Shown in pieces: positions 24,438-37,056 of a DNA stretch of 64,000 nucleotides. The stretch is from Candidatus Latescibacterota bacterium (lineage in GTDB: Bacteria > Latescibacterota > UBA2968 > GCA-2709665): contig CBDCOX010000002.1 in assembly GCA_965219995.1 (NCBI GenBank), positions 2,112,001-2,176,000 of the forward strand, given 5' to 3'. The notes under the pieces were generated by a model. The model was not told the DNA's origin, searched no databases, and saw nothing but the letters and a program-made list of their open reading frames with translations. Both the position numbers and the translations under genes were made by a program. Each line of letters begins with the position of its first letter. Position 1 is the stretch's first letter.

Positions 24438-25520
24438 ATGTCGGACATTCCGTATCTCATCGCAGACAGCCACCTGGATCTCGGTTTCAGCGCCATTCAG
24501 GTCAATCGTGACCTCACACAGCCGGCCGCGACCGTACGCGTCCACGACGCCGAGCCCGTGATGCGCAGCTTCGGAAGCTGTACCGTCACCTTTCCGGAAC
24601 TTCGCCGGGGCAACGTCGGCATCATCTTCGGCACCATGATGTCCCGTACCGACCCCAACGACCGCTGGACACGCACGGGCATGTACTGCCAGGACCAGTG
24701 CCACGGCGTGGGACGGGGCCACCTGGCCTACTACCAGGCGATGGAGCGCGAAGGCGTGATTCGCTTCATCCGCAATTCGCGGGACCTGGACGAAACGGTG
24801 GCCGCGTGGGAGAACCCGGCCCCCGATACGCCAATCGGCCTGGTAGTGGCCATGGAAAGCGCCGACCCCATCCTGGACCCGTCCCAGGTCCCCGAATGGT
24901 ACGATCTCGGGCTCCGAATCGTGAGCATTTCCCACTACGGCGTCAGTTCCTACTGCCACGGAACGGGCACCGAGGGCGGCCTGCTGGAACGCGGCAAACC
25001 CCTGCTCGCCGCCCTGAAGGAAGCGGGGATTATCGTTGATCTGACCCACACCACTGACCAGGCCTTCTGGGAAATCCTGGACGTCTACGACGGTCCCGTG
25101 GCCGCTTCTCACCACAACTGCCGCGCCCTCACCCCCGGACAGCGCCAGCTCACCGACGCCATGATCGGCGCCATCATCCAACGAGGCGGCGTGATAGGCG
25201 CTGCATTCGATGCCTGGATGCTGGATCCGGACTGGAACCGCGACATCCCATGTTGGGCGCAGAACACAAAGGCCACCCTCGAAACCGTAGCCAATCACAT
25301 CGACCACGTCTGTCAACTCGCCGGCAACGCACGGCACGCCGGCATCGGCACCGATCTGGACGGCGGATTCGGACAGGAACAGTCCCCTCGGGACCTCAAC
25401 ACCATCGCCGACCTTCAGAACCTGGTCGGCATCCTCCAGCGCCGTGGCTACAGGGAACCCGACGTTCGCAACATCCTCTCCGGCAACTGGGTCCGATTCC
25501 TCAAGGAAGTCTGGGGATAG
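24438..25520 (+). CDS. Membrane dipeptidase family (M19), tandem paralog
   Basis: IADSHLD, ESAD, VDLTH, ASHHN, IGTDLDGG. Confidence 0.9.
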   Translation: MSDIPYLIADSHLDLGFSAIQVNRDLTQPAATVRVHDAEPVMRSFGSCTVTFPELRRGNVGIIFGTMMSRTDPNDRWTRTGMYCQDQCHGVGRGHLAYYQAMEREGVIRFIRNSRDLDETVAAWENPAPDTPIGLVVAMESADPILDPSQVPEWYDLGLRIVSISHYGVSSYCHGTGTEGGLLERGKPLLAALKEAGIIVDLTHTTDQAFWEILDVYDGPVAASHHNCRALTPGQRQLTDAMIGAIIQRGGVIGAAFDAWMLDPDWNRDIPCWAQNTKATLETVANHIDHVCQLAGNARHAGIGTDLDGGFGQEQSPRDLNTIADLQNLVGILQRRGYREPDVRNILSGNWVRFLKEVWG

Positions 25521-25554
25521 GCGATCCACAACGGAACACGCAGACCTGAGCACT

Positions 25555-27024
25555 ATGTCTCCCAGACCCAATCTGCTTCTCATTACAACCGACCAGCAGC
25601 GCGGCGACTGCCTTGGATGCGACGGGCATCCGGTGCTGGAAACGCCCTACCTGGATGAACTGGCCGAGGGCGGCGCGCGATTCGATCACGCCTACACCTC
25701 CGTGCCTTCATGCACCCCCGCCCGCGCCGGTATCCTCACGGGCATGGACCAGTGGAACCACGGCCGTCTCACGATGACCGGCGCCGACCCGCTCGAGTAT
25801 CCGGCCACACTGCCCGGCGAACTCGCTCACGGGGGCTACCATACCCAGGCCGTGGGCAAAATGCATTTCCATCCCCAGCGCAGACTCTACGGTTTCCACC
25901 ATATGGTCCTGGACGAGAGCGGGCGACGACTTGGCAACTTCATCAGCGACTATCACGTTTTCTTTGAGAAACACAAAGAGGGCGAATACGGCTACCGCGA
26001 CCACAGCGTGGACTGGAACTCCTGGATGGCCCGCCCGTCGCACCTGCCCGAACACCTGCATCCCACACACTGGACGGCATCCGAAGGCATCAGGTTCCTG
26101 GAAAACCGGGACCCGACCAAACCCTTCTTTCTCTGGTTGTCTTTCGCTCGCCCGCATTCCCCGTACGACGCGCCGCAGACTTACTACGACATGTACATTG
26201 ACAACCCGCGCATTCCCGAAGCGGCCGCGGGAGCGTGGTCGGCCCGGTACGACCGGCAGATCGCGGATGTGAACGCCCCGCGCACACGCCGCACCGCCGC
26301 CGAGACCCATCGTGCGCGAGCGGCCTATTACGGCAACATTACCTTCATCGACCATCAGATCGGCCGTGTCCTGCACGAACTGCGCCGGCGCGACCCAAAG
26401 GCAGCGGCCAACACCCTGATCCTGTTCACGTCGGACCACGGCGACATGATGGGCGATCATCACCACTGGCGAAAAACCTACGCGTATGAAGGCTCCGCCC
26501 GAATCCCCTTCATCCTCAAATACCCGGACACCTGGGAAATTCACCGCAACGCGACGCTGGGCCAGCCGGTGGAACTGCGAGACGTTATGCCCACGTTCCT
26601 CGATGCCGCGGGCGTCTCCGTCCCCGAATCCGTAGACGGCCGCAGCCTGTTGAATCTCTCACGGGGCGACAGCGAACGCTGGCGGGAGTTCGTTCAGGGC
26701 GAACACACCACCTGTTACGACAGAGAACACGGTATGCAGTACGTAACCGACGGCCGGGAAAAGTACATCTGGTTCCATCATACCGGGGCCGAGCAGTTCT
26801 TCGACCTGGAAACCGACCCACTGGAGTGCATTGACCTCGCGGCCGATGCCGATCGGCAATCACGCATCGACGACTGGCGGGGACGCCTGGCCGAAGTCAA
26901 CGAAACGCGCGGCGACCCGCGGGGCCGGAACGGCGAACTCGTGCCCCAGCCCGGCGGCGCGTTGTCGCTTTCTCCCAACTACGAGAAATGGAAACAACGG
27001 GCGGAAGCGCTGGATGGCGAATAG
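25555..27024 (+). CDS. Cys-type arylsulfatase
   Basis: RPNLLLITTDQQR, CTPARAGILTG, GKMH, TSDHG. Confidence 0.92.
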   Translation: MSPRPNLLLITTDQQRGDCLGCDGHPVLETPYLDELAEGGARFDHAYTSVPSCTPARAGILTGMDQWNHGRLTMTGADPLEYPATLPGELAHGGYHTQAVGKMHFHPQRRLYGFHHMVLDESGRRLGNFISDYHVFFEKHKEGEYGYRDHSVDWNSWMARPSHLPEHLHPTHWTASEGIRFLENRDPTKPFFLWLSFARPHSPYDAPQTYYDMYIDNPRIPEAAAGAWSARYDRQIADVNAPRTRRTAAETHRARAAYYGNITFIDHQIGRVLHELRRRDPKAAANTLILFTSDHGDMMGDHHHWRKTYAYEGSARIPFILKYPDTWEIHRNATLGQPVELRDVMPTFLDAAGVSVPESVDGRSLLNLSRGDSERWREFVQGEHTTCYDREHGMQYVTDGREKYIWFHHTGAEQFFDLETDPLECIDLAADADRQSRIDDWRGRLAEVNETRGDPRGRNGELVPQPGGALSLSPNYEKWKQRAEALDGE

Positions 27025-27086
27025 AAAAAAACGGCCGGTTCGACGACCAATCCACGACTTGCATACGGGCGAAACGAGAAGATCCC

Positions 27087-28127
27087 ATGGAACAGGAAGA
27101 CGGATTCAACCTGTCTCCCTCGGTACATCACCGGCATCTGATGGACACCCTCGAACCGTCGATGTCGTATCGCGGCGAGGATTTCGAGACCTGGCGGAAA
27201 CCGCTTCGGAGAATGGTCCGGCAACTCGTCGGCGACATGCCGGAGGAACGGGCGCCTCTGAATGTGCGCTCCCTCTGGAAGCGCGAACACCCTCTGGGGC
27301 ATATCGAAAAGATCGTATTCGCCGGTGAGCCCTACGCAGACGTTCCGGCGTACGTGTGTCTTCCAAACGGTGTGGAACCTCCCTATACCTTCTTCATCTG
27401 CGTTCAGGGCCACTCTACGGGCATGCACAACTCCATCGCCGTGGCCCGGGACGACAACAGGGAGCCGATCGAGGTCCCCGGTGACAGGGACTTCGGCCTC
27501 GGGTGTATGAGGCGCGGCATCGCCGCCCTGTGCATCGAGCAGCGTTCGTTCGGAGAGAGGCGGGAGCTTGTCCAGCGGAAGATTTCCACCCACGGGTGTC
27601 ACGACGCCACGATGCACGCGCTGATGCTCGGCCGCACCCTTCTGGGCGAGCGCGTCTACGACGTGGACAGAGGGATTGACTACCTGTTCTCGCGGGGCGA
27701 CGCGCATCCGGAACGCATCGGCGTCATGGGCAATTCCGGCGGCGGGACCGTTAGCCTTTTTTCCGCGGCCTTGCTGCCACGAATCTCGTACGCCATGCCT
27801 TCCTGTTACTTCTGCACGTTCCGGGACTCCATCATGTCCATTTATCATTGTGCGGACAACTACGTGCCGGGCCTTCTCAAGTACGCTGAAATGCCGGACG
27901 TAATGGGGTTGTTCGCCCCAAATCCGGTCGTACTCGTAGCAGGTAGGGACGACGGGATCTTCCCTGTCGCGGGCGTACGGAAAGCCTTCGACCATCTCAA
28001 GACCATCTACGCGGCGGCCGGCGCGCCCCACCGCTGCCACCTGGTGATTGGGAACGGAGGGCACCGGTTCTATGCCGAGGAGGCATGGCCGGTAATGCTC
28101 GAGGAAGTTGCGAGGGACGCCAGATAG
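27087..28127 (+). CDS. Alpha/beta hydrolase (acetyl xylan esterase/dienelactone hydrolase-like)
   Basis: Nucleophile elbow GNSGGG, GRDD, GGHRF. Confidence 0.88.
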   Translation: MEQEDGFNLSPSVHHRHLMDTLEPSMSYRGEDFETWRKPLRRMVRQLVGDMPEERAPLNVRSLWKREHPLGHIEKIVFAGEPYADVPAYVCLPNGVEPPYTFFICVQGHSTGMHNSIAVARDDNREPIEVPGDRDFGLGCMRRGIAALCIEQRSFGERRELVQRKISTHGCHDATMHALMLGRTLLGERVYDVDRGIDYLFSRGDAHPERIGVMGNSGGGTVSLFSAALLPRISYAMPSCYFCTFRDSIMSIYHCADNYVPGLLKYAEMPDVMGLFAPNPVVLVAGRDDGIFPVAGVRKAFDHLKTIYAAAGAPHRCHLVIGNGGHRFYAEEAWPVMLEEVARDAR

Positions 28128-28178
28128 GTAAATAAAAGGCGCGGGGCCCGCCGCGCGCCATTATTGTACGAGGAGATC

Positions 28179-28652
28179 ATGCCTGTGAAATACTGGCTGA
28201 TGAAGTGCGAACTCAACGAATGCAGCTTCGACGACCTGAAGCACAACCGGCCCGACAGCACGGGAAAGTGGCGCGGCGTGCGCAACTATCAGGCGCGAAA
28301 TTTCATCCGTGACGACATGCGGACGGGCGACGTCGTCCTGTTCTACCAGTCCAACTGCGACGAACCCGGTATCGCCGGCCTTGCTGAGATCGTTCGGGCG
28401 GCCTATCCCGACCCCTCGGCCTTCGACCCGGAAAGCAACTATTACGACGACAAGTCCACGCCTGACGATCCCCGATGGTTCTCGGTGGACGTGAAATGGA
28501 AAAAGGCCTTCGAGACGTACGTACATCTCAAAGACCTTAAGGCGAACCCCAAACTGGAAAAAATGCTTGTTGTTCGCAGGGGTCAGCGGCTGTCCATCCA
28601 GCCCGTCAAGAAAAGAGAGTTCGACATCGTCTGTGAAATGGGCGGGATCTGA
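28179..28652 (+). CDS. EVE domain protein
   Basis: YWLMKCE, WRGVRNYQARN, RLSIQPV; AGGAG RBS. Confidence 0.93.
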   Translation: MPVKYWLMKCELNECSFDDLKHNRPDSTGKWRGVRNYQARNFIRDDMRTGDVVLFYQSNCDEPGIAGLAEIVRAAYPDPSAFDPESNYYDDKSTPDDPRWFSVDVKWKKAFETYVHLKDLKANPKLEKMLVVRRGQRLSIQPVKKREFDIVCEMGGI

Positions 28653-28720
28653 TCCTCCGTACCCCCTGTTGTTTAATCCGCCTGCCCGTCCGCGCAACCC
28701 GTTTACACGACACAATCCGA

Positions 28721-29557
28721 TCAAGGCGCCTCGGGAACTTCCACCGGCAGGTCCAGCCGGTCGCCCCATTCCTTCCACGACCCGATATAGTTGCGCACAT
28801 TCTCATATCCCAGCAGGCGCAACGCCAGGTACGAATGGGAGGAACGGTACCCCCCCTGTCAGTAACACGCCACCGTCTGCTCCGGCATCACGCCCGCCCG
28901 TTCGTACATCGCACGCAGCTGTGCCGCCGGCTTGAACGCGCCCGACGCGTCCAGGTTGTTCAGGTACTCGATATGCACGGCATCGGGCAAAGCGCCGGCC
29001 CGGGCAGAGCGCGCCACCCGCCCGTAATATTCATCGCCGCTGCGCGTATCCAGCGGCACGAAATCCGTGCGTCCGAGCGAATCCCGAATCTCCTCGTAGC
29101 CGATATGGCGCCCCGCCACCGGTGAGGCCTCGAATGTGGCCGCATCCGGGACCGCGACCTCCCGCGTCGTCGCATATCCCGCCGCCCTCCAGGCCCCCAG
29201 CCCGCCATCCAGCACATGTACGTCCGTGTGTCCCAGATATTCGCAGATCCAGAAACCGCGCGCCGCCCGCATCCCCGAGTCGTTCTCGTAAAACACCACC
29301 GTGGCATCGGAGCCGATCCCCCGGCTTCCCATTAAGTACGACAGGGTCCACATGAAAGCCTCGAAAGCCTCCTGTCCGGTGTTGTTCAGACTGATTCCGT
29401 AGAGGTCCAGGTGCAGCGCACCGGGAATATGCCCCGATGTGTATTCGTGGGTGGGCCGGACGTCCACGATGCACGTCGCTCCGTCGTGGAGGCGACCCTG
29501 CAACTGCCGCGGCGTCATCAACAGATCAGAATTTGCATATCCCTTTTGATCCATCAC
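28721..29557 (-). CDS. Tandem-domain rhodanese/sulfurtransferase with probable selenocysteine (in-frame TGA 28859-28861)
   Basis: VDVR, GHIPGA, LDGG, LDTRS..EY.G; after TGA the frame continues [31 protein letters not shown]...EAP to a stop at 28721; 278 aa in total. Confidence 0.88.
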
Positions 29558-30636
29558 CGTCCCTCCTGCTCGAAGTAGGCATCGATTTCAATGCATCGCC
29601 CGCCCTGCCGGGCGGAATCCCATCCGGCCAGGACCGGCGCCAAGGAATACAGACCATCGTGATAATCGTTCAGGATACCCCCGGGGCGGCCCGAACGCAC
29701 GGCCTCCACGAAGACCCGGTCCTGCTCGAACCATGGGTCGAAATCCCGATCCCGATAGACCGTCTCGCCGTTCAAGTCGATTCGATCGTAATTGAATATC
29801 TCCATCCGCCCGCCCTCGAAGAAAAACGTGAACCACGGCTGCGGCGTTCCCGACGGGTCCGCCCGCACAAACGTCATCGTCATCGTCGCGCCGTTGTCCA
29901 TCAGGAAGTGGAATGACGACGAAAGCGGTTCGCTGAAGACGTCGGACTTTTCACAATAAAACGCCTGGACGCTCTCAACCTCCAATCCGGTCATAAACCG
30001 GGTGTAATCCACGGCGTGCACGCCCCAATCGAGCGCCGGACCTCCCGACTTGCCCATCTGGTACCACCACGACGTCCGGTCCTTCCGCGACTTCAACCGG
30101 GGCAGCCCCCCCACGGACCGAAACACCGCGTGTACGATCCGCTTCTCCGACAGAATGCGCCGCGCCTCCTGGAACAGCGGCCGATACCGTTCCCGAAAAC
30201 AGACCGTGCTCAACACGCCCGCCTCCCGAATCGCCCGGTCGATTTCCAGAGCCACGGCCATCCGAAGGGCCTGCGGCTTTTCGCTGAACAGATGAATCCC
30301 CCGGCGCACGGCCTCGATTTCGACGTCCGTGCGCGCAAAGGCCGGCACGACCGAAAAGAGCACGTCGAACCGCTCGTTCTCGACCATTTCGCGCCCGTCG
30401 GCATAGACCGCCGGTATGTCAAAGCGCTCTGCCGTACGACTCAGGGCCTCCGCGTCCACGTCGCATGCCGCCACGACGTCAACGCCCAGTTTTTTCAGGT
30501 TCGGAATATGGGTCTGGTTCGCCCATGACCCTGTGCCGTAAATCGCGGCGCGGACCGGCCTTCCGGAAGTCCTCGCCGAATCCGTCGGCAGGTCGTTGTC
30601 TTCCGGTCTCCCTGCCACGTCCCTACCCACTGGCAA
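29554..30636 (-). CDS. Gfo/Idh/MocA-family oxidoreductase
   Basis: IYGTGSWA, FSEKP, GGPALDWGVHAVD. Confidence 0.9.
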   Translation of the reverse strand: MPVGRDVAGRPEDNDLPTDSARTSGRPVRAAIYGTGSWANQTHIPNLKKLGVDVVAACDVDAEALSRTAERFDIPAVYADGREMVENERFDVLFSVVPAFARTDVEIEAVRRGIHLFSEKPQALRMAVALEIDRAIREAGVLSTVCFRERYRPLFQEARRILSEKRIVHAVFRSVGGLPRLKSRKDRTSWWYQMGKSGGPALDWGVHAVDYTRFMTGLEVESVQAFYCEKSDVFSEPLSSSFHFLMDNGATMTMTFVRADPSGTPQPWFTFFFEGGRMEIFNYDRIDLNGETVYRDRDFDPWFEQDRVFVEAVRSGRPGGILNDYHDGLYSLAPVLAGWDSARQGGRCIEIDAYFEQEGR

Positions 30637-31900
30637 GCGACTCCGCCGTCTGTACTATGGTTTGCTCCTCACCCTGGAATCTGGCCGGTTCACCATAATA
30701 GGGGTACGCGTTGGGCTCGTACCCGCCCTCCTCGTAGTGCCGGTCGGTACAAAGGTATCCGATCTCGTCGTTCGCGTATCCCACCGGCCACACATCGTCG
30801 GCGTCCACCATCCCCCTCAGCCGTTTCTCGATCGCGTGACCGATCTCCTGTACCGGCTCGCCGGGTATGGAAACGCAAGCCAGCGGACCCACCGCCATCA
30901 ACTGCATCTCCGTCGCGCGGCTGTCGGGAATGCCGCCGTTCTCGATCATCTCCAAGACGCTGTTCGCCCACGGTCCCGTCAGCAGGCGGCCTCTTGCGCT
31001 TTCGTCGTCCGCCATCTCTCGCAGTTTCTCAATCGGATCGTGCTCGCCGAATGAAATCTGTACGTCGGATCGCCGTGCGCTCAATTGCGAGGACCGCCGG
31101 GTCTTCAGGCTGCCGGCCACGCGTACCACCTCCCGCCCCAACTCCTCCCCGCACGCATCGAGTTCAGCCTTGCTGGCCGACTTGAAGCGCGCGGTGTCCG
31201 GGTCCACCACGGCCGGTCGGATATTGCCGAAGCACCCCGCCAGATACAAGGCTTTGCAACCCATGGACTCTTCAATTACCCTGCGGGCGATTCCGGCATA
31301 GTCCGGCGAAATATAGCCTTCGGACCCGCTCTTTGTCGTGGTATGGCAGGAGTAGTGAAACAGCACCGCCAGCGGCGCCCCATCCTCGGCTTCCACGAGA
31401 AGAACGCGGGCGCGCCGGTCCACGATACCGCCGAAATTCAACGTCATGCCGGAGGCGCCGGGCAATGGCCTGCGGCAGATATTGAAATGCGCCGAACCGC
31501 AGCCCACTCCGAACCGGACCGGCCTCAAATCCGCCGCCGCCCGCGCGATGCTGTCCGCGGTTGCGATCTCGATCATTTCCAGCCATCCGTCGGGCGGTTC
31601 CATGCCCAGCGCCGGCAGCGTGGCGGGCGCCGAGTGCGTGTGGCTGCATGCCAGCATCACGTGATCGCCCGGGATGCCGCACGCCGCGGTCACCCGCGCC
31701 CGGATCCGGTCGGTCGTCTCCTTTGCCACGCCGATGACGTCCAGGGTCGCGATCGCCGTCCTCGTCTCCCCTTCCTCGAACACGATCGCGCGGACTTCCA
31801 GCGGATACAGCACCGAATGGGACGGATTCGAGCTCCAATGCCCCTGAAGTACGGGACCCGGCTCAGGCGTAATATCTGCCGTCGCGACACCGCTTTTCAT
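30623..31900 (-). CDS. Neutral/alkaline ceramidase-like N-terminal domain protein
   Basis: GVATADITP, ACSHTHSAP, YSCH, ISPDY, IPGEP, GYAN..IGY, GGYE. Confidence 0.82.
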   Translation of the reverse strand: MKSGVATADITPEPGPVLQGHWSSNPSHSVLYPLEVRAIVFEEGETRTAIATLDVIGVAKETTDRIRARVTAACGIPGDHVMLACSHTHSAPATLPALGMEPPDGWLEMIEIATADSIARAAADLRPVRFGVGCGSAHFNICRRPLPGASGMTLNFGGIVDRRARVLLVEAEDGAPLAVLFHYSCHTTTKSGSEGYISPDYAGIARRVIEESMGCKALYLAGCFGNIRPAVVDPDTARFKSASKAELDACGEELGREVVRVAGSLKTRRSSQLSARRSDVQISFGEHDPIEKLREMADDESARGRLLTGPWANSVLEMIENGGIPDSRATEMQLMAVGPLACVSIPGEPVQEIGHAIEKRLRGMVDADDVWPVGYANDEIGYLCTDRHYEEGGYEPNAYPYYGEPARFQGEEQTIVQTAESLASG

Positions 31901-32824: not shown

Positions 32825-35800
32825 TTAGTTCGCGTTTCGTTCGGCGCGTTTCTCCATCCACTCGTAGATCACCGGCAACAGGATCAGGGTCAGCAGGGTC
32901 GAGGTGATGAGGCCGCCAACCACGACGGAGGCGAGCGGACGCTGCGTCTCCGCGCCCACGCCGGAAGACAGCAACATCGGCATCAATCCCAGAATGGATG
33001 TGCCCGCGGTCATCAGGACGGGGCGCAGGCGAAGCGCTGCGCCCTGCCGTACCGCTTCCTCGACGGAAAGTCCCGTCTCTCTGAGTTCATTGATGAAGCT
33101 GACAAGAACGATGCCGTTCAACATGGCCACGCCGAATACGGTGATGAATCCGATCGCGGACGGGACCGACACGTATTGTCCGCTGATGAAGAGCGCAATC
33201 AATCCCCCGATGGTGGCAAACGGTACGTTGGCGATGATCAGCGTGGCATACTTCACCGAATTGAACGCGGTATACAGCAACACGAAAATGAAGAAAATCG
33301 TCAGCGGCACGATCACTGACAGTCTCGCCAGCGCGCGCTGCTGGTTCTCGAACGCGCCGCCCCACTCGATCCAGTACCCCGGCGGCAGATCGACCTGGTC
33401 CTGGATGGCCGCACTCGCGTCACGGACAAAGCCGTCGATATCACGGCCCCGGACGTCCATCTGAATGACCGCGTAGCGCTGCAGCTGCTCCCTGCGCACG
33501 AACGAATACCCCTGCGCGACGCTTACGTCGGTAACCTCCGACAGGGGGATGATGGCGCCAACGCTGGTTTTGAGCGGGATACGCCCGATGGCCTGCACCG
33601 AGGATTTCGACGCGTCGTCCAGCCGCGCCGTAATGTCGAACCGGCGGACGCCGTCGATCAGAGTGGACACGGGTTCGTTGCCGATGCCGGTCCGCACGAC
33701 CGACAACACCTCGTCGGTACTCAGGCCGAAACGCGCAAGGTGGTCCCGGCGGACCTGGAGGCGGATCTGAGGTTTGCCGATATTTGCCTCCAGCGAAAGA
33801 TCGGCCACGCCGTCCACCGATGCGATGACCTCCTTGATCCGGAGGCTCAACCGGTTGAGTTCCGCCAGGTCCTCACCGTAGATCTTGGCGGCGAGCGTGG
33901 CGCGAACGCCGGAAATGAGTTCCTCCACGCGCATCTGGATCGGTTGCGTAAAGGCCACCACGGCGGTCGGAACCACCTCCTCCAGCCTTTCCCGCATCGC
34001 TTCGGCGAGTTCCCCGATATCTCTGTCGCCAGGCCACTCGTCCTCCGGTTTGAGTTCGGTGTAAATCTCCATGTAATTCACGTCGGCCGTCTCGCCCTTT
34101 TCGGCGCGTCCGATCATGGCCACGGTGGTGTTGACTTCCGGGAATCCGGACAGGGCGTTCTCGATGTCCTTGGAAATCGCAATCGACTGATCGAGCGACG
34201 CGGACGGAATGGACGTGACGCGCCACATGATCGAGCCCTCCTGCAATTGCGGCATGAATTCCCTGCCGAGAAAGGGAAAGAGCGCGAGGCTCGCAGCCAG
34301 CAGCCCGACGGCGATTCGGACCACGATCTTCTTGTTCGCGAGGGCTCCGTAGAGGAGCGGCACATAGCGCGCCTTGACGACGCGAACCAGCCACGTATCC
34401 CGCTGCTCCTTCGGCTTGAGGATCAGCGCGGCCAGTACAGGTATCAGCGTAAGCGTCAGCACGAGCGAGCCGGCCATCGCGAAGCTGATATTGAACGCCA
34501 TGGGCTTGAAGAGTTTCCCTTCGAGACCCTCGAGCGCGAACAGCGGCAGAAAAACCACAATGATGATCATGATGGCGAAGGCGATCGGATTCGCCACGCT
34601 CCGCGCGGCTGCCAGCACGGCGCTGGAACGATCAACGGCCTGCCCGGCCTCCTTCCGCTCCGCCATGATGCGGAAGGCGTTCTCGACCACGACCACGGCG
34701 CCGTCGACGATCATGCCGATGCCGACCGCGAGTCCGGCCAGCGACATAAGGTTGGCGGAGAGTCCCGCCTGGTCCATGAAGATGAAGGCGACAAGCATCG
34801 CCAGCGGAATGGACGCGATAACTACCACTGCCGAACGGAGTTCGCCAAGGAAGAGGAACAACACGATGGCCACCACAACCGCGCCCTGCAGAAGCGCGTT
34901 TGTCGCCGTGGCCACCGACCGGTTCACCAGGTCCGTGCGCTCGTAAACCGGCCGCAACTTGACGCCTTCCGGCAGGGAACGGTCGACAATTGCGACTTTC
35001 TCCTTTACGGCATCGACCACGGCGGCGGCGTTTTCTCCGATGCGCGAAAGGGCCATACCGAGCACAACTTCCTTGCCGTCGCGGGTCACGGCGCCGAAGC
35101 GGAGGGCCCCTCCCTGCACAATGTCCGCGACGTGTCGGAGGTAGACCGGCGTGCCGTCCTCAACCTTGACGACCATCGCGCCGATGTCCTCTTCGTTTTC
35201 GACAAGGCCGAGCCCGCGCACCAGGAATTGCTCAGCGCCGAGGTTGACGTACTGGCCGCCGACCTGCCGGTTGTTGGCCTCGATCACTTCGATCACGTCG
35301 GTGAACGTGAGGTCGTACTCGATAAGACTCAAGGGATCGATGACAACCTGGTACTGACGTTCCTGCCCTCCCCAGGAAATCACATCGTCCACGCCAGGCG
35401 CGGTACGCAAAATCAAGCGGACGCTCCAGTCGTGGAGCGTCCGCAGATCCATGTCCGTAATCCCGGCATTCAGCTTTTCATCGGCCCGTTCGAGCGTGTA
35501 CCAGAAAACCTGCCCGAGTCCGGACGTATTCGGGCCCATCTCCGGCGTGCCGTACCCTTCGGGAATCCGGTCTCCGACTTCCTGGAGGCGTTCCATCACC
35601 AGGCGGCGCGCGAAGTAGATGTCCATGTCATCTTCGAAGTACACCGCTACGTACGAGAGGCCGAACAGGCTCACCGAGCGGATCTGCTTTACCCTTGGCA
35701 GGCCCGCCATTGCGGATTCGACGGGAAAGGTAAGTAGCTGCTCGACGTCCTCCGCCGCCAGACCCGGCGATTCGGTATAAATGTTGACCTGGGCGGGCGT

Positions 35801-35926
35801 TACGTCGGGGAATGCGTCGATCGGGACGGTCACAACCGCGCGCCAGCCCAGAAAGGCGACCACCCCGAAGGCGAGCAGCACAAGGACCTTGTAGCGCACC
35901 GAGGTTTCAACCAGCTTTTCTAACAC
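32825..35926 (-). CDS. CusA/CzcA-family heavy-metal efflux RND permease
   Basis: IDAFPDVT, GMIVDGAVVVVEN, EGKLFKPMA, RLRPVLMTA, GAETQRPLA; GTG start follows GAGGAG. Confidence 0.95.
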   Translation of the reverse strand: MLEKLVETSVRYKVLVLLAFGVVAFLGWRAVVTVPIDAFPDVTPAQVNIYTESPGLAAEDVEQLLTFPVESAMAGLPRVKQIRSVSLFGLSYVAVYFEDDMDIYFARRLVMERLQEVGDRIPEGYGTPEMGPNTSGLGQVFWYTLERADEKLNAGITDMDLRTLHDWSVRLILRTAPGVDDVISWGGQERQYQVVIDPLSLIEYDLTFTDVIEVIEANNRQVGGQYVNLGAEQFLVRGLGLVENEEDIGAMVVKVEDGTPVYLRHVADIVQGGALRFGAVTRDGKEVVLGMALSRIGENAAAVVDAVKEKVAIVDRSLPEGVKLRPVYERTDLVNRSVATATNALLQGAVVVAIVLFLFLGELRSAVVVIASIPLAMLVAFIFMDQAGLSANLMSLAGLAVGIGMIVDGAVVVVENAFRIMAERKEAGQAVDRSSAVLAAARSVANPIAFAIMIIIVVFLPLFALEGLEGKLFKPMAFNISFAMAGSLVLTLTLIPVLAALILKPKEQRDTWLVRVVKARYVPLLYGALANKKIVVRIAVGLLAASLALFPFLGREFMPQLQEGSIMWRVTSIPSASLDQSIAISKDIENALSGFPEVNTTVAMIGRAEKGETADVNYMEIYTELKPEDEWPGDRDIGELAEAMRERLEEVVPTAVVAFTQPIQMRVEELISGVRATLAAKIYGEDLAELNRLSLRIKEVIASVDGVADLSLEANIGKPQIRLQVRRDHLARFGLSTDEVLSVVRTGIGNEPVSTLIDGVRRFDITARLDDASKSSVQAIGRIPLKTSVGAIIPLSEVTDVSVAQGYSFVRREQLQRYAVIQMDVRGRDIDGFVRDASAAIQDQVDLPPGYWIEWGGAFENQQRALARLSVIVPLTIFFIFVLLYTAFNSVKYATLIIANVPFATIGGLIALFISGQYVSVPSAIGFITVFGVAMLNGIVLVSFINELRETGLSVEEAVRQGAALRLRPVLMTAGTSILGLMPMLLSSGVGAETQRPLASVVVGGLITSTLLTLILLPVIYEWMEKRAERNAN

Positions 35927-35934
35927 GGAGCTCC

Positions 35935-37056
35935 TCAATGCGCGTGGCCGCCGCCCAGCGAAGACTTGAGTAGCAGCGACTTCAAATGAAAGACGCCGGA
36001 AACCGCGATTTCGTCACCGGCCTGGAGTCCGGCTGAAACCACCGTCCAGTCGCCCACGGTTGCACCGGTGACGATCGATTCCGGGTGAAACTCATGGCCG
36101 GCCTTGACTCTGAACACGGTAGGGATATCGTCGATCATTGTCACAGCGGCGTTCGGTACGGCCAGCACCGGTTCCCCGACGCCCGTAACGATCTCCACCT
36201 CGACGAACTGTCGCTCGTGCAGCAGGTCCTCCTCGTTGTCCACTTCGATTCGAACGCCGTGGGTGCGGGTCTTCTCATCCACGCGGTGGTAGCGCTGAAC
36301 AACCGTACCCTCAAACCAGGTGACGCCGTCGGGACTGACCCGCGCCGAACTGCCCGCATGGATTTCGGGCGCACCCACCGCAATCGGTCTGGCTTCCACC
36401 CACATCACGGACTCGTCGCTGATATCGAATAGGACGCGCCCGGGCTCGATCAGTTCACCCACGATGAAGTTGTCCTGCAAAACCGTCCCGTCCTGCGGGG
36501 CAAACAGATCGAAGACGCCGCTGGCAATGTCCGCGTCGGTGATATTCATCAGGGCGTCCGCCTGCGCTTGCGTCATACCGTAGGCGAGTACCCTGGCCAG
36601 CGCCAGTTGCCGGGCCACGCGCGCCTCGGTGAAACGACGGTCGGACACGGATTCCGGTCCGAGGCTCCTGACGCGCTCCCATTCCCGGTTGGCAACGATC
36701 AATTCGCCCTGCGCTTCGGCCATGGCTACGCTCGAGAGGGTTACCATGGGCTGTCCGGCCGTTACCGTCTCACCGAGTATGACGTGCCGGGCGACGACCT
36801 GGGCGGTAATGCGGGGGGTGACGCGTGAGGACCTGTACACGTTGATCCCCACGTTGCCGGGGACGCGAATGGTCTCACCCAGTGCGCGCCGCGCAACGCT
36901 GTCGACGACAACGCCGGCAGCGCGCTGCTCATCGGCCGTCATTTCGACGATTCCGGCCGCTTCGCCTTCCGGATTCTCGTGGTCTGCTTCTTCCGCGAGA
37001 ACCGGGGCGATCATGGCCAGGATGAGACACGCCGCCCGGAGTGTCGGGGTGTTCAT
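35935..37056 (-). CDS. RND efflux periplasmic adaptor (CzcB-like)
   Basis: Signal peptide, APQDGTV, C-terminal GGGHAH; ATG 37056 follows GGAG. Confidence 0.9.
   Translation of the reverse strand: MNTPTLRAACLILAMIAPVLAEEADHENPEGEAAGIVEMTADEQRAAGVVVDSVARRALGETIRVPGNVGINVYRSSRVTPRITAQVVARHVILGETVTAGQPMVTLSSVAMAEAQGELIVANREWERVRSLGPESVSDRRFTEARVARQLALARVLAYGMTQAQADALMNITDADIASGVFDLFAPQDGTVLQDNFIVGELIEPGRVLFDISDESVMWVEARPIAVGAPEIHAGSSARVSPDGVTWFEGTVVQRYHRVDEKTRTHGVRIEVDNEEDLLHERQFVEVEIVTGVGEPVLAVPNAAVTMIDDIPTVFRVKAGHEFHPESIVTGATVGDWTVVSAGLQAGDEIAVSGVFHLKSLLLKSSLGGGHAH

Follow-up and report, generated by a model that had tools for sequence, protein, structure and literature searches.

We conclude that the minus-strand gene at 28721-29554 of the window, the 64,000-nucleotide stretch of Candidatus Latescibacterota DNA analysed here, very probably encodes a genuine selenoprotein, a rhodanese that has two domains and belongs to the thiosulfate-sulfurtransferase (TST/RhdA) type, and we place the probability of this reading at roughly 0.93. 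Comparison of homologous sequences strongly supports its core, a tandem rhodanese in which UGA at the position of the catalytic Cys would be read as selenocysteine (Sec) in a Sec-competent genome.

The ORF predicted with translation table 11 (28859..29557, minus strand) ends ...EQTVACY*. Followed along the minus strand, this frame runs GCG TGT TAC TGA CAG GGG GGG TAC CGT TCC and then remains open to the stop at 28721-28723, with 45 codons between the in-frame TGA and this second TGA, exactly as the first-pass annotation had described. That annotation had also counted 278 residues, a length that we revise to a more likely 277: homologs begin MDQKGY and the short database forms are 231 aa long, which favours the ATG at 29554-29552 over the GTG at 29557 as the likely start. 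An AGGAGG, read from the sequence, lies 7 nt 5' of this ATG. A start at the ATG would therefore give a protein of 277 aa with Sec as residue 232 (233 in the GTG numbering of the translated protein, P0001). PF00581 matches two stretches of the chain (E 4.3e-34), corresponding to two rhodanese domains, and the genome holds a single ortholog at E<=1e-40, with no Cys-containing backup copy. All features are listed in Table 1.

Table 1. Positions, in window coordinates, of the rhodanese gene, its elements and its neighbours.
Feature	Position	Strand	Remarks
Sec tandem rhodanese CDS (predicted)	28721..29554	-	277 codons + stop; ATG 29554-29552, UGA-Sec codon 232, terminal TGA 28723-28721
TGA codon, predicted to be read as Sec	28859..28861	-	Opens active-site loop U-Q-G-G-Y-R-S
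TGT codon, Cys at -2 from Sec (C of C-x-U)	28865..28867	-	Sequence reading
AGGAGG ribosome-binding site	29562..29567	-	7 nt 5' of ATG; sequence reading
N-terminal rhodanese domain	29183..29515	-	PF00581 residues 15-125; genome match C2:2141183-2141515
C-terminal (catalytic) rhodanese domain	28763..29095	-	PF00581 match C2:2140763-2141095, 1 TGA inside
Candidate hairpin 1	28841..28857	-	nt +5 to +21 (U of UGA = 1); 6-7 bp stem, R-U-A triloop in most relatives
Candidate hairpin 2	28804..28833	-	nt +29 to +58; apical loop U-U-G-C-G-N-N at +40 to +46
Gfo/Idh/MocA oxidoreductase gene, directly upstream	29554..30636	-	PF01408, PF22725; TGA stop 29556-29554 shares one base with rhodanese ATG
Ceramidase-like hydrolase gene, first of apparent three-gene unit	30623..31900	-	PF04734, E 1e-9; one gene beyond Gfo/Idh/MocA
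EVE-domain gene, convergent	28164..28652	+	PF01878, E 2.5e-51; marks 3' end of rhodanese transcription unit

The position of the TGA within the fold is given by its relatives of solved structure. The best of these, RhdA from Azotobacter vinelandii (PDB 1e0c, E 1.1e-39 over residues 7-273), has the same tandem layout and is a match close enough to settle the fold, and U aligns with the Cys of its CQTHHRS loop, which carries Cys instead of Sec and differs from U-Q-G-G-Y-R-S at three further residues. U also aligns with the loop Cys of PDB 8k55 (CRIGERS) and 1uar (CRIAERS), and we take the aligned Cys to be the catalytic residue in all three structures. At the same position full-length homologs read [YHF]-C-Q-G-G-Y-R, while the short homologs all stop exactly before it. 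In 80 named loci, the codon at this site is TGA in 28, TGC in 45 and TGT in 7. The first-pass annotation had placed the TGA at the catalytic Cys and had proposed a homolog alignment as a check; both are borne out, the TGA matching Cys (TGC or TGT in 52/80 named loci) and being kept in related genomes.

Conservation of the TGA was high at every level of comparison. It is in frame in 38/41 genomes of same-order relatives, the other three having no stop there. Across the phylum, 55 of 168 genomes hold an ortholog (E<=1e-60), with the TGA in 50 of these 55 (including genome G031, counted through its second fragment) and no TGA in five. Among 30 related loci, 28 have TGA at this very codon, well beyond what chance would give, and the TGA persists in proteins only 58-61% identical and in phyla of different label. 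The true stops of the 28 Sec loci differ (10 TGA, 12 TAA and 6 TAG), while the internal codon is always TGA. Over the 42 codons that follow it, diversity at the three codon positions in these 28 loci is 0.085/0.024/0.302, falling mostly on third positions, and the protein tail is nearly invariant. This codon-position pattern indicates that the part downstream of the TGA is translated and under strong purifying selection.

The TGA is not an assembly error, because a contig from run X5, whose study code is other than that of the best holders, equals 28706-28904 with 0 differences, TGA included; this check used assembled contigs. The site is also covered by contigs from runs X6 and X7, which differ at 12 and 9 positions; the differences listed all lie outside 28859-28861 (35 more are unlisted), and both runs were excluded from the confirmation of the TGA. 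An RNA-library contig (X18, 90-95% alike) spans the TGA with a 1-nt gap at 28773, in the coding part that follows it, and is no proof that the rhodanese gene is transcribed. Runs with small shares had their habitat labels disregarded.

The genome carries the machinery that Sec insertion would need. A genome search found selA (473.8 bits) and selB (366.8 bits) with a tRNA-SeC(tca) adjoining them, and selD (359.9 bits), which contains one TGA of its own and is thus itself Sec-containing; the protein matches all exceed their curated cut-offs. The search for selA, selB, selC and selD that the first-pass annotation had called for was therefore positive throughout, and the case in which it would have withdrawn its reading, a genome devoid of Sec machinery and relatives that all carry Cys, does not apply: the sel genes are there and the relatives keep the TGA. 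In four further candidate genes, a Pfam match contains an in-frame TGA. Three of these genes show UxxC- or CxxU-type motifs; the fourth (C2:3765042-3765533) is without a partner Cys, and its hairpin was chosen by eye with no cut-off.

The Sec form is old and stable. Three families of Candidatus Latescibacterota have it as a fixed trait, and it is present as well in Poribacteria and one Nitrospinota MAG. In a quick LG+G4 tree, made without bootstraps and rooted at the midpoint only (110 sequences, 101 distinct, 100 used; locus L072 and rows under 200 aa were left out), the Sec forms make up one subclade of 48 Sec and 4 Cys rows, which requires at least three changes of state. A few switches between Sec and Cys are seen, in genomes that still carry selB; the tree, being unrooted, fits either direction. 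Loss of the Sec machinery was considered as the cause of the Cys forms and rejected, since selB scores above its cut-off in 5/5 genomes tested, including the Cys-form genomes G016, G020 and G036.

Residues around the active site were compared between Sec and Cys forms. The loop U-Q-G-G-Y-R-S-S is invariant in 48/48 Sec forms, with Ser at +7, where 50/52 Cys forms have Ala; of the four Cys forms that fall within the Sec clade, three are among these. The C-x-U motif, whose Cys the first-pass annotation had suggested could be a resolving residue, is not shared throughout the Sec forms: residue -2 is not conserved among the 48 distinct Sec forms (C in 23, P in 14, S in 11), and Cys is found there in 3/52 Cys forms as well. 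What emerges is a family to which C-x-U is inessential and whose active-site loop is followed by a Ser-Ser signature linked to Sec.

We also searched for a structure that could direct Sec insertion. Two predicted hairpins distinguish Sec from Cys forms, one starting 2 nt past the UGA and a second with a U-U-G loop from ~37 nt downstream. For hairpin 1, 83% of 42 distinct Sec forms keep helix 6-11/15-20 intact vs 6% of 51 Cys forms, and mean pair probabilities are 0.46-0.63 and 0.01-0.04, respectively; in the window's copy, position +9 is G and the register of the fold is shifted. Hairpin 2 belongs to the minimum-energy fold of the window's sequence and has mean pair probabilities of 0.26-0.39 in Sec forms vs 0.01-0.03 in Cys forms. 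Bias at its synonymous sites is confined to Sec forms (U40 in 38/42, G42 in 42/42), and its core helix 33-39/47-53 is fully intact in just 43% of these forms. Hairpin 1 is too near the UGA for a canonical SECIS, and by distance hairpin 2 would be the more plausible candidate for a SelB-binding element. The geometry of the pair is unlike that seen elsewhere in this genome in selD and the AhpC-type genes, where the loops begin at +20/+21. Synonymous diversity is lowered at +1..+14 after the UGA (0.359 vs 0.513), a comparison in whose Cys set L072 is a short N-terminal fragment only, ending at an upstream TAG.

A covariation test of the two-hairpin model gave 87.2% of cells paired against 86.8 +/- 0.4 in shuffles, a value reached by 91/500 of them and hence no excess. 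The 70 nt 3' of the window's TGA fold no better than shuffled sequence (z -0.64; 58/200 as good), and searching 28700-28900 against Rfam at E<=10 returned no SECIS family and one chance miRNA match (E 9.8). Other helices, namely 9-15/30-36, 39-45/66-72, 29-32/41-44 and the long-range 8-11/40-43 with 16-19/36-39, were discarded as they formed weakly or inconsistently. Rfam, folding, helix enumeration and covariation thus demonstrated no canonical SECIS fold, and we claim no SECIS structure because the two-hairpin model lacks covariation beyond that of shuffles.

Gene neighbourhood offered no lead to function. The first-pass annotation had the gene coupled by overlaps to a ceramidase-like hydrolase and a Gfo/Idh/MocA gene, which is true in the window, with Gfo directly upstream, and limited to one genus: within the window's genus (g1) the ceramidase-like gene lies by the rhodanese gene in 15/15 loci and Gfo in 14/15 (a 59-residue piece at locus L022), while neither is a neighbour in the other 15 of the 30 loci compared. 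In other lineages the neighbours are an amidase with PhyH, an aldo-keto reductase, a nucleotidyl transferase, a Cys/Met PLP enzyme, MatE, a xanthine-dehydrogenase-type Mo enzyme and a secretion ATPase. We accordingly set the neighbourhood aside as a clue to function, the pairing being confined to one genus and the neighbours elsewhere mutually unrelated. A conserved downstream frame, 'orf205' (minus-strand ORF 28161-28778), was likewise rejected as a gene; it matches no family and is a shadow of the plus-strand EVE-domain gene.

Among named families, the best NCBIfam match of P0001 is NF008557 (E 2.1e-28), the SseA 3-mercaptopyruvate sulfurtransferase (NF008557/PRK11493; E. coli, PDB 1urh, E 1e-20), likewise a tandem rhodanese, with Cys in place of Sec; the score of 99.2 bits lies far below the equivalog cut-off of 250. 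The loop of 3-MST enzymes is of the CG[ST]GVT type, and the window's loop is not. Another Sec rhodanese, rhodanese_LYCAU (NF041203), has C-x-U as in the window's A-C-Y-U; it is single-domain (a model of ~126 positions), in contrast to the two-domain protein found here, and P0001 reaches 39.4 bits against a cut-off of 115, over residues 229-273 only. In the published accounts, NF041203 corresponds to form 3, CxU (PMC13188914) and to COG0607 form 2, CxU (PMC9312934). TsoB (NF045694), a rhodanese/DsbD fusion-like protein, is also a rhodanese-domain selenoprotein and is described, in the part of that account available, as having two Sec residues in a UxxxxU motif (PMC13188914); its architecture is another one (a 572-position model), and P0001 scores 22.4 bits against a cut-off of 805.

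A closer counterpart has been in the literature for some time. A Sec 'rhodanese-related sulfurtransferase' (COG2897 SseA / cd01449) was, according to the available passages, first reported in 2005 from the Sargasso Sea (PMC1088965) and found again in GOS (PMC2398784), and the family is described as form 4, UxxG, of PF00581/COG2897 type (PMC13188914, PMC9312934, PMC1088965). The earlier remark that Sec rhodaneses were already reported from metagenomes is correct as far as these four sources extend (PMC1088965, PMC2398784, PMC9312934, PMC13188914). By its sequence features, and on the published descriptions available, the window's gene is to be regarded as a fresh member of this already published COG2897 family. 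Shared with the published accounts, in their available parts, are the two-domain SseA/TST organisation, PF00581, the in-frame UGA, widespread Cys homologs, U-x-x-G (here U-Q-G-G), a knowledge drawn from sequence only and marine or host-associated sources; to the published representatives AACY01016424, MQG53192.1 and MCY3690685.1 the gene was matched by description only. The same passages are without Latescibacterota, Poribacteria, the Ser-Ser after the loop or taxonomic fixation. As far as it is available, the literature on Sec rhodanese families describes no experimentally characterised Sec rhodanese and gives bioinformatic tables only.

As to how the protein may be made and work, the ribosome would meet UGA at codon 232, where SelB with Sec-tRNA(Sec) would insert Sec, guided by mRNA structure within ~60 nt 3' of the UGA, and translation would then proceed through the remaining 45 codons up to the terminal stop. 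If the enzyme works as Cys rhodaneses do, its selenolate could take sulfane sulfur from a donor (thiosulfate or persulfide), forming an enzyme Se-S intermediate that would pass the sulfur on to a thiophilic acceptor. This sulfur-transfer chemistry and its substrate are predicted from homology. With selenium, the catalytic residue would be a stronger nucleophile and a better leaving group, and would be less open to irreversible over-oxidation.

Two alternatives deny the Sec residue altogether. If the TGA were a plain stop, arisen by nonsense mutation, pseudogenisation or assembly error, the product would be a 231-aa protein without the catalytic loop and the downstream frame would be decaying. 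Public gene calls do end there, with 22 of the 120 homologs listed being 229-232 aa forms that end at the TGA under names like 'rhodanese-like domain-containing protein', and the local fold is unexceptional; however, a decaying frame would hardly keep its TGA in 38/41 and 50/55 genomes, down to 58-61% identity and in phyla of different label, nor its 45 downstream codons under purifying selection and always with a proper stop, and the contig from run X5 has no difference here. TGA conservation, varied stops and the codon-position pattern effectively refute this explanation. We regard as equally improbable that the UGA is read by a non-Sec route, be it a reassigned code (TGA as Trp or Gly), a suppressor tRNA or near-cognate Cys or Trp. 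Near-cognate read-through of UGA is known under selenium limitation, and nothing specific speaks for it here; in this genome TGA serves as a normal stop, ending both the rhodanese gene itself and the Gfo gene, and a non-Sec route fits poorly with an internal codon that is always TGA while terminal stops differ, with homologs that hold the catalytic Cys at the aligned position and with the presence of selA, selB, selC and selD.

A third alternative accepts the Sec residue and changes its use: the protein may mainly handle selenium as a Se-Se perselenide carrier, for instance to SelD or in selenite detoxification. Rhodanese domains do act in selenium pathways, selenium-loaded bovine rhodanese is a precedent, P0001 weakly matches the selenite/tellurite-operon rhodanese ExtH (70.8 bits, cut-off 200) and MnmH, both beneath threshold, and the organism's other candidate genes with a Sec codon, at least five in number (four of them firm and one weaker), imply that a selenium supply is needed. 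We nevertheless consider such a role unlikely, as every match to a selenium family falls far under its cut-off, selD and selAB lie hundreds of kb from the rhodanese gene, no selenium-metabolism gene is a conserved neighbour in the loci compared, and Cys orthologs with the same loop are widespread (among the 80 named loci, the Sec use of those lineages lying outside the comparison).

Beyond the preferred reading of a Sec-containing tandem rhodanese, the invariant U-Q-G-G-Y-R-S-S with Ser at +7, together with a two-hairpin arrangement unlike that of selD and the AhpC-type genes, raises the idea that the Latescibacterota-Poribacteria-Nitrospinota Sec clade is a distinct selenoenzyme lineage, in which enzyme and mRNA would be co-adapted to selenium through an unconventional SECIS arrangement. 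We hold this to be doubtful; if true, the SECIS geometry would be a new one, and biochemistry would have access to its first sulfurtransferase lineage in which catalytic Sec is stably fixed.

For the family, the analysis provides a well-defined, deeply conserved clade of 48 distinct Sec sequences, taken from genomes that are complete or nearly so, together with natural Cys counterparts. Its members are currently misrepresented in databases: among the 120 homologs listed, all those with more than 70% identity are cut off at the TGA after 231 aa, every close relative being shortened, and the protein sets of these genomes are left without the catalytic half of their only tandem rhodanese. Many of the Latescibacterota and Poribacteria genomes come from sponge, coral or marine samples, and with the catalytic half missing, reconstructions of sulfur metabolism for these two groups will therefore miscount this enzyme.

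The open reading frame at the site (table 11) terminates at an in-frame TGA, around which the minus strand reads GCG TGT TAC TGA CAG GGG GGG TAC CGT TCC. When this TGA is read as selenocysteine (Sec, U), the frame gains a 45-residue tail up to a second TGA, giving 278 residues from a GTG, the product proposed by the first-pass annotation. The frame and the second stop hold, but the ATG is the likelier start, since homologs open with MDQKGY and truncated database forms measure 231 aa, an AGGAGG lies 7 nt upstream of it, and it overlaps the upstream gene's TGA stop by one base. Started at this ATG, the protein is 277 residues long and carries Sec at position 232 (residue 233 of P0001, the window protein numbered from the GTG).

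Pfam detects two PF00581 rhodanese domains (E 4.3e-34), both recovered in the genome search, and the best-matching relative of solved structure is Azotobacter RhdA (PDB 1e0c, E 1.1e-39 over residues 7-273). With U treated as C by the alignment programs, the U column aligns on the Cys of HCQTHHRS (1e0c), YCRIGERS (8k55) and YCRIAERS (1uar), which we take to be the persulfide-carrying residue of the rhodanese loop. No NCBIfam model matched P0001 above its cut-off (SseA-type 3-MST, 99.2 bits for a cut-off of 250; ExtH, 70.8 for 200; rhodanese_LYCAU, 39.4 for 115; TsoB, 22.4 for 805), and none of the named NCBIfam families includes it as an equivalog. Judging from the two domains, the RhdA relationship and these sub-threshold scores, the protein belongs to the TST/RhdA-like tandem rhodaneses. 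The source genome (G000) holds a single ortholog and its other rhodanese matches are single domains, so the Sec form is its only tandem rhodanese.

Coordinates of the Sec-rhodanese gene, its surroundings, and the Sec genes of G000 (C2, the G000 contig)
Feature	Location	Strand	Remark
Sec-rhodanese gene	window 28721-29554	-	from ATG
ORF ending at in-frame TGA	window 28859-29557	-	from GTG 29557
In-frame TGA (Sec)	window 28859-28861	-
Likelier start, ATG	window 29554-29552	-
Second TGA (stop)	window 28721-28723	-
Cys105 codon	about window 29243-29245	-	W-I-C-E-Y, N-terminal domain
Gfo/Idh/MocA gene	window 29554-30636	-
Ceramidase-like gene	window 30623-31900	-
EVE-domain gene	window 28164-28652	+	PF01878, E 2.5e-51
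205-aa ORF	window 28161-28778	-	rejected
Sulfatase, alpha/beta hydrolase, AcrB-type pump	window 25444-28127; 32825-35938	+; -	PF00884 (E 9.8e-50), PF12715, PF00873
selA	C2:1804778-1805869		473.8 bits
selB	C2:1802817-1804697		366.8 bits
tRNA-SeC(tca)	C2:1802578-1802675
selD	C2:2652925-2653848	+	359.9 bits; one in-frame TGA, RTCG-U-AAK
Candidate Sec gene	C2:439894-440163	-
Candidate Sec gene	C2:5157666-5157893	-
Candidate Sec gene	C2:3765042-3765533	+	AhpC/TSA-like, TW-U-RRS
Candidate Sec gene	C2:78589-78744	-
PLP enzyme, Poribacteria	L063 4083-5276	-	PF01053, E 8.6e-146
Molybdenum enzyme, Nitrospinota	L079 731-2962	+
L072	G038:C1:220709-221503		altered N terminus
G031 ortholog	G031:C241:5467-6287		two frames

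All four genes that the first-pass annotation had proposed to look for (selA, selB, selC and selD) were found in G000, the first three at adjacent coordinates and thus in one cluster. Besides selD, four candidate genes show a Pfam match that spans an in-frame TGA: two AhpC/TSA-like ones with UxxC (HN-U-PTC and LW-U-PPC), an AhpD/CMD-like one with CxxU (C-V-Y-U), and a third AhpC/TSA-like one (TW-U-RRS), the weakest of the four because it lacks a partner Cys and its hairpin was chosen by eye.

The TGA is conserved. Orthologs (E<=1e-40) occur in all 41 genomes of the same order; 38 of them keep the in-frame TGA, and three (G016, G020, G036) have no in-frame stop. Phylum-wide, a search at E<=1e-60 recovered orthologs in 55 of 168 genomes, which all fall into three families (f1 21/21 and f2 30/31, both excluding G000, and f3 3/3); with this query and threshold none was found in the other Latescibacterota families. 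Among these 55 orthologs, TGA was seen in 49 rows and is absent in 5 genomes, and that of G031 is in two fragments with TGA in the second. The G031 fragments occupy overlapping frames (residues 1-187 and 182-276), suggestive of a frameshift or a misassembly in this 280-contig genome. At the aligned codon, 80 named homolog loci have 28 TGA, 45 TGC and 7 TGT, so that the TGA does match Cys in homologs, as the first-pass annotation had proposed to check; their record labels place the TGA forms in Latescibacterota (13), Poribacteria (12), Gemmatimonadota/-etes (2) and Nitrospinota (1).

A nonsense mutation or a pseudogene would also leave a frame that stops at this codon, and a reassigned code would also let it be read through. 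A misassembly does not account for the TGA, since one 344-nt contig from sequencing run X5, whose study code is distinct from that of the best holders, has zero differences over window 28706-28904 (contigs of runs X6 and X7 also cross the TGA and were left out as confirmation because 35 differences are unlisted). The TGA sits at the same codon in 28 of 30 related loci, while the true stops vary (10 TGA, 12 TAA, 6 TAG). In the 42 codons that follow the TGA, sequences differ pairwise by a mean of 0.085/0.024/0.302 at the three codon positions (0.166/0.144/0.403 upstream), a pattern that points to a translated tail. Combined, the Sec machinery, the TGA conservation, the Cys homologs, the tail variation, X5 and the use of TGA as an ordinary stop elsewhere in G000 (the rhodanese gene and its upstream neighbour both terminate in it) exclude a nonsense mutation, a pseudogene and a reassigned code. 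Altogether, these sequence comparisons make it very probable (roughly 0.93) that this is a real Sec-containing tandem rhodanese with deep conservation, and the hidden selenoprotein with UGA at the catalytic-Cys position announced by the first-pass annotation is strongly supported.

In a quick maximum-likelihood tree (100 distinct sequences, L072 omitted, LG+G4, SH-aLRT only), one subclade holds all 48 Sec forms and 4 Cys forms, with a minimum of 3 Sec/Cys state changes. Loss of the Sec machinery is ruled out as the cause of these switches, since selB scored above cut-off in 5/5 genomes tested, three Cys-form genomes of the order and two Sec-form controls. In L072, from an 8.4-Mb relative, unrelated sequence ending in TAG takes the place of the N-terminal ~25 residues, with the Sec codon and the tail preserved; an insertion may have disrupted the gene, or it may use a new start.

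We compared residues around Sec between 48 distinct Sec forms and 52 Cys forms. The resolving Cys of a C-x-U motif, suggested by the first-pass annotation, is present in the window protein but in only 23 of the 48 Sec forms at position -2 (P 14, S 11; Cys forms S 27, T 14, A 7, C 3, P 1). This Cys is a lineage marker rather than a requirement of the Sec enzyme; it may form a selenenylsulfide in the window organism's protein, which cannot be the family-wide mechanism. What does track Sec in the alignment is a serine pair after the loop, Ser in 48/48 Sec forms at both +6 (Cys forms A 41, S 9, G 2) and +7 (A 50, S 2); of the four Cys forms that fall within the Sec clade, three have YRSA. The pair may serve active-site chemistry; alternatively, base pairing with the G-run that follows UGA may require its UCY UCC codons. 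Cys105 of P0001, ~131 columns before Sec, is Cys in 47/48 Sec forms vs 3/52 Cys forms (Leu in 49/52), and may be a mere clade marker.

The SECIS elements of the other Sec genes look ordinary, and in most of the five candidates (including selD) the hairpin loop begins 20-27 nt after UGA (U of UGA counted as 1): GGUC at +21..+24 on a 7-bp stem in selD, AGUUG at +20..+24 (LW-U-PPC) and CGUGCC at +27..+32 (AhpD-like) on 6-bp stems, and AGUU at +20..+23 on a possible 6-bp stem, outside the minimum-energy fold, in TW-U-RRS. At that distance the rhodanese gene has no comparable hairpin. Two hairpins are predicted in its Sec forms and not in Cys forms: hairpin 1 (+5..+21; helix 6-11/15-20 intact in 83% of 42 Sec vs 6% of 51 Cys sequences; mean pair probability 0.46-0.63 vs 0.01-0.04) and hairpin 2 (+29..+58, loop UUGCGNN; core helix intact in 43% vs 8%; 0.26-0.39 vs 0.01-0.03). 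Synonymous sites differ between the same 42 and 51 sequences: +12 is a purine in 37/42 Sec forms (C in 43/51 Cys forms), +15 is C in 42/42 (37/51), +18 is C or U only (G in 17/51), +40 is U in 38/42 (a UUG Leu codon; 7/51) and +42 is G in 42/42 (29/51). For codons +1..+14, synonymous diversity is lower in Sec forms (0.359) than in Cys forms (0.48) or in the upstream part of the same Sec genes (0.513).

Several observations argue against a defined SECIS. Two-hairpin covariation is null (87.2% paired cells vs 86.8 +/- 0.4 shuffled, reached by 91/500 shuffles), with only one pair changing on both sides; Cys forms fold at least as stably (mean -23.6 vs -17.7 kcal/mol); and the hairpin contrast is partly due to the Ser-to-Ala difference and is drawn from interrelated Sec forms, which are not independent observations. 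Hairpin 1, moreover, begins 2 nt past UGA, and a hairpin starting there would sit inside the ribosome during UGA decoding. Hairpin 2 would be the better candidate for SelB binding, in what is possibly an unusual SECIS arrangement.

The rhodanese gene ends a co-directional, overlap-coupled run after ceramidase-like and Gfo/Idh/MocA genes. This coupling, described in the first-pass annotation, is confined to the window's genus (ceramidase-like gene in 15/15 loci, Gfo gene in 14/15, with a remnant of only 59 residues in L022) and was found in 0/15 related loci outside it. The EVE-domain gene converges on the rhodanese gene, and the 205-aa ORF overlapping the rhodanese 3' end was rejected as its shadow. 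Ten neighbours from six other Sec-form loci (L053, L055, L058, L063, L077, L079) belong to unrelated families, so context is uninformative on the substrate. In L063, a Cys/Met-metabolism PLP enzyme is encoded on the other strand some 250 nt downstream; in L079, a xanthine-dehydrogenase-family molybdenum enzyme is encoded directly upstream; and a distant homolog (about 29% identity) of the window sulfatase adjoins the Sec-rhodanese in several f2 loci. A 626-nt contig of RNA library X18, 90-95% alike and probably from a relative, crosses the TGA and the rhodanese 3' end with single-base gaps at 28773 (post-TGA coding part) and 28704.

As the first-pass annotation stated, such families are known from metagenomes. 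Tables of the Sargasso Sea selenoproteome list a 'Rhodanese-related sulfurtransferase' (COG2897, 3 Sec sequences, widespread Cys homologs), sulfurtransferase function being among the processes newly tied to selenium (PMC1088965), and those of GOS a 'Rhodanase-related sulfurtransferase' (cd01449, 8 Sec sequences) and a 'Sulfurtransferase COG2897' (1 Sec sequence; PMC2398784). A 2022 review has entries for 'Rhodanase-related sulfurtransferase, COG2897 (SseA)' and, apart from it, COG0607 'form 2, CxU' (PMC9312934). A 2026 review gives five rhodanese selenoprotein forms, including 'form 3, NF041203, CxU' and 'form 4 (rhodanese-related sulfurtransferase), UxxG', and remarks that annotation pipelines commonly truncate selenoproteins; Latescibacterota and Poribacteria have 0 occurrences each in its text (PMC13188914). 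By description, the U-Q-G-G and SseA-type architecture of the window protein file it under form 4. Among the papers listed that combine selenocysteine with Latescibacter..., none concerns this protein, judged by titles and abstracts, and Poribacteria were absent from the rhodanese/selenoprotein matches listed.

In a 5.8-billion-protein collection, 22 of 120 homologs listed are 229-232-aa forms stopping at the TGA, including every one listed above 70% identity, under the names 'rhodanese-like domain-containing protein', 'sulfurtransferase' and 'thiosulfate/3-mercaptopyruvate sulfurtransferase'; no full-length Sec record was among the close matches listed. The gene is thus hidden from current annotation, yet of a selenoprotein kind described since 2005. 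What this analysis contributes beyond that known kind is the fixation of the Sec form within two taxa, Latescibacterota and Poribacteria, an inessential C-x-U, a Sec-linked Ser-Ser signature and, possibly, an unusual SECIS.
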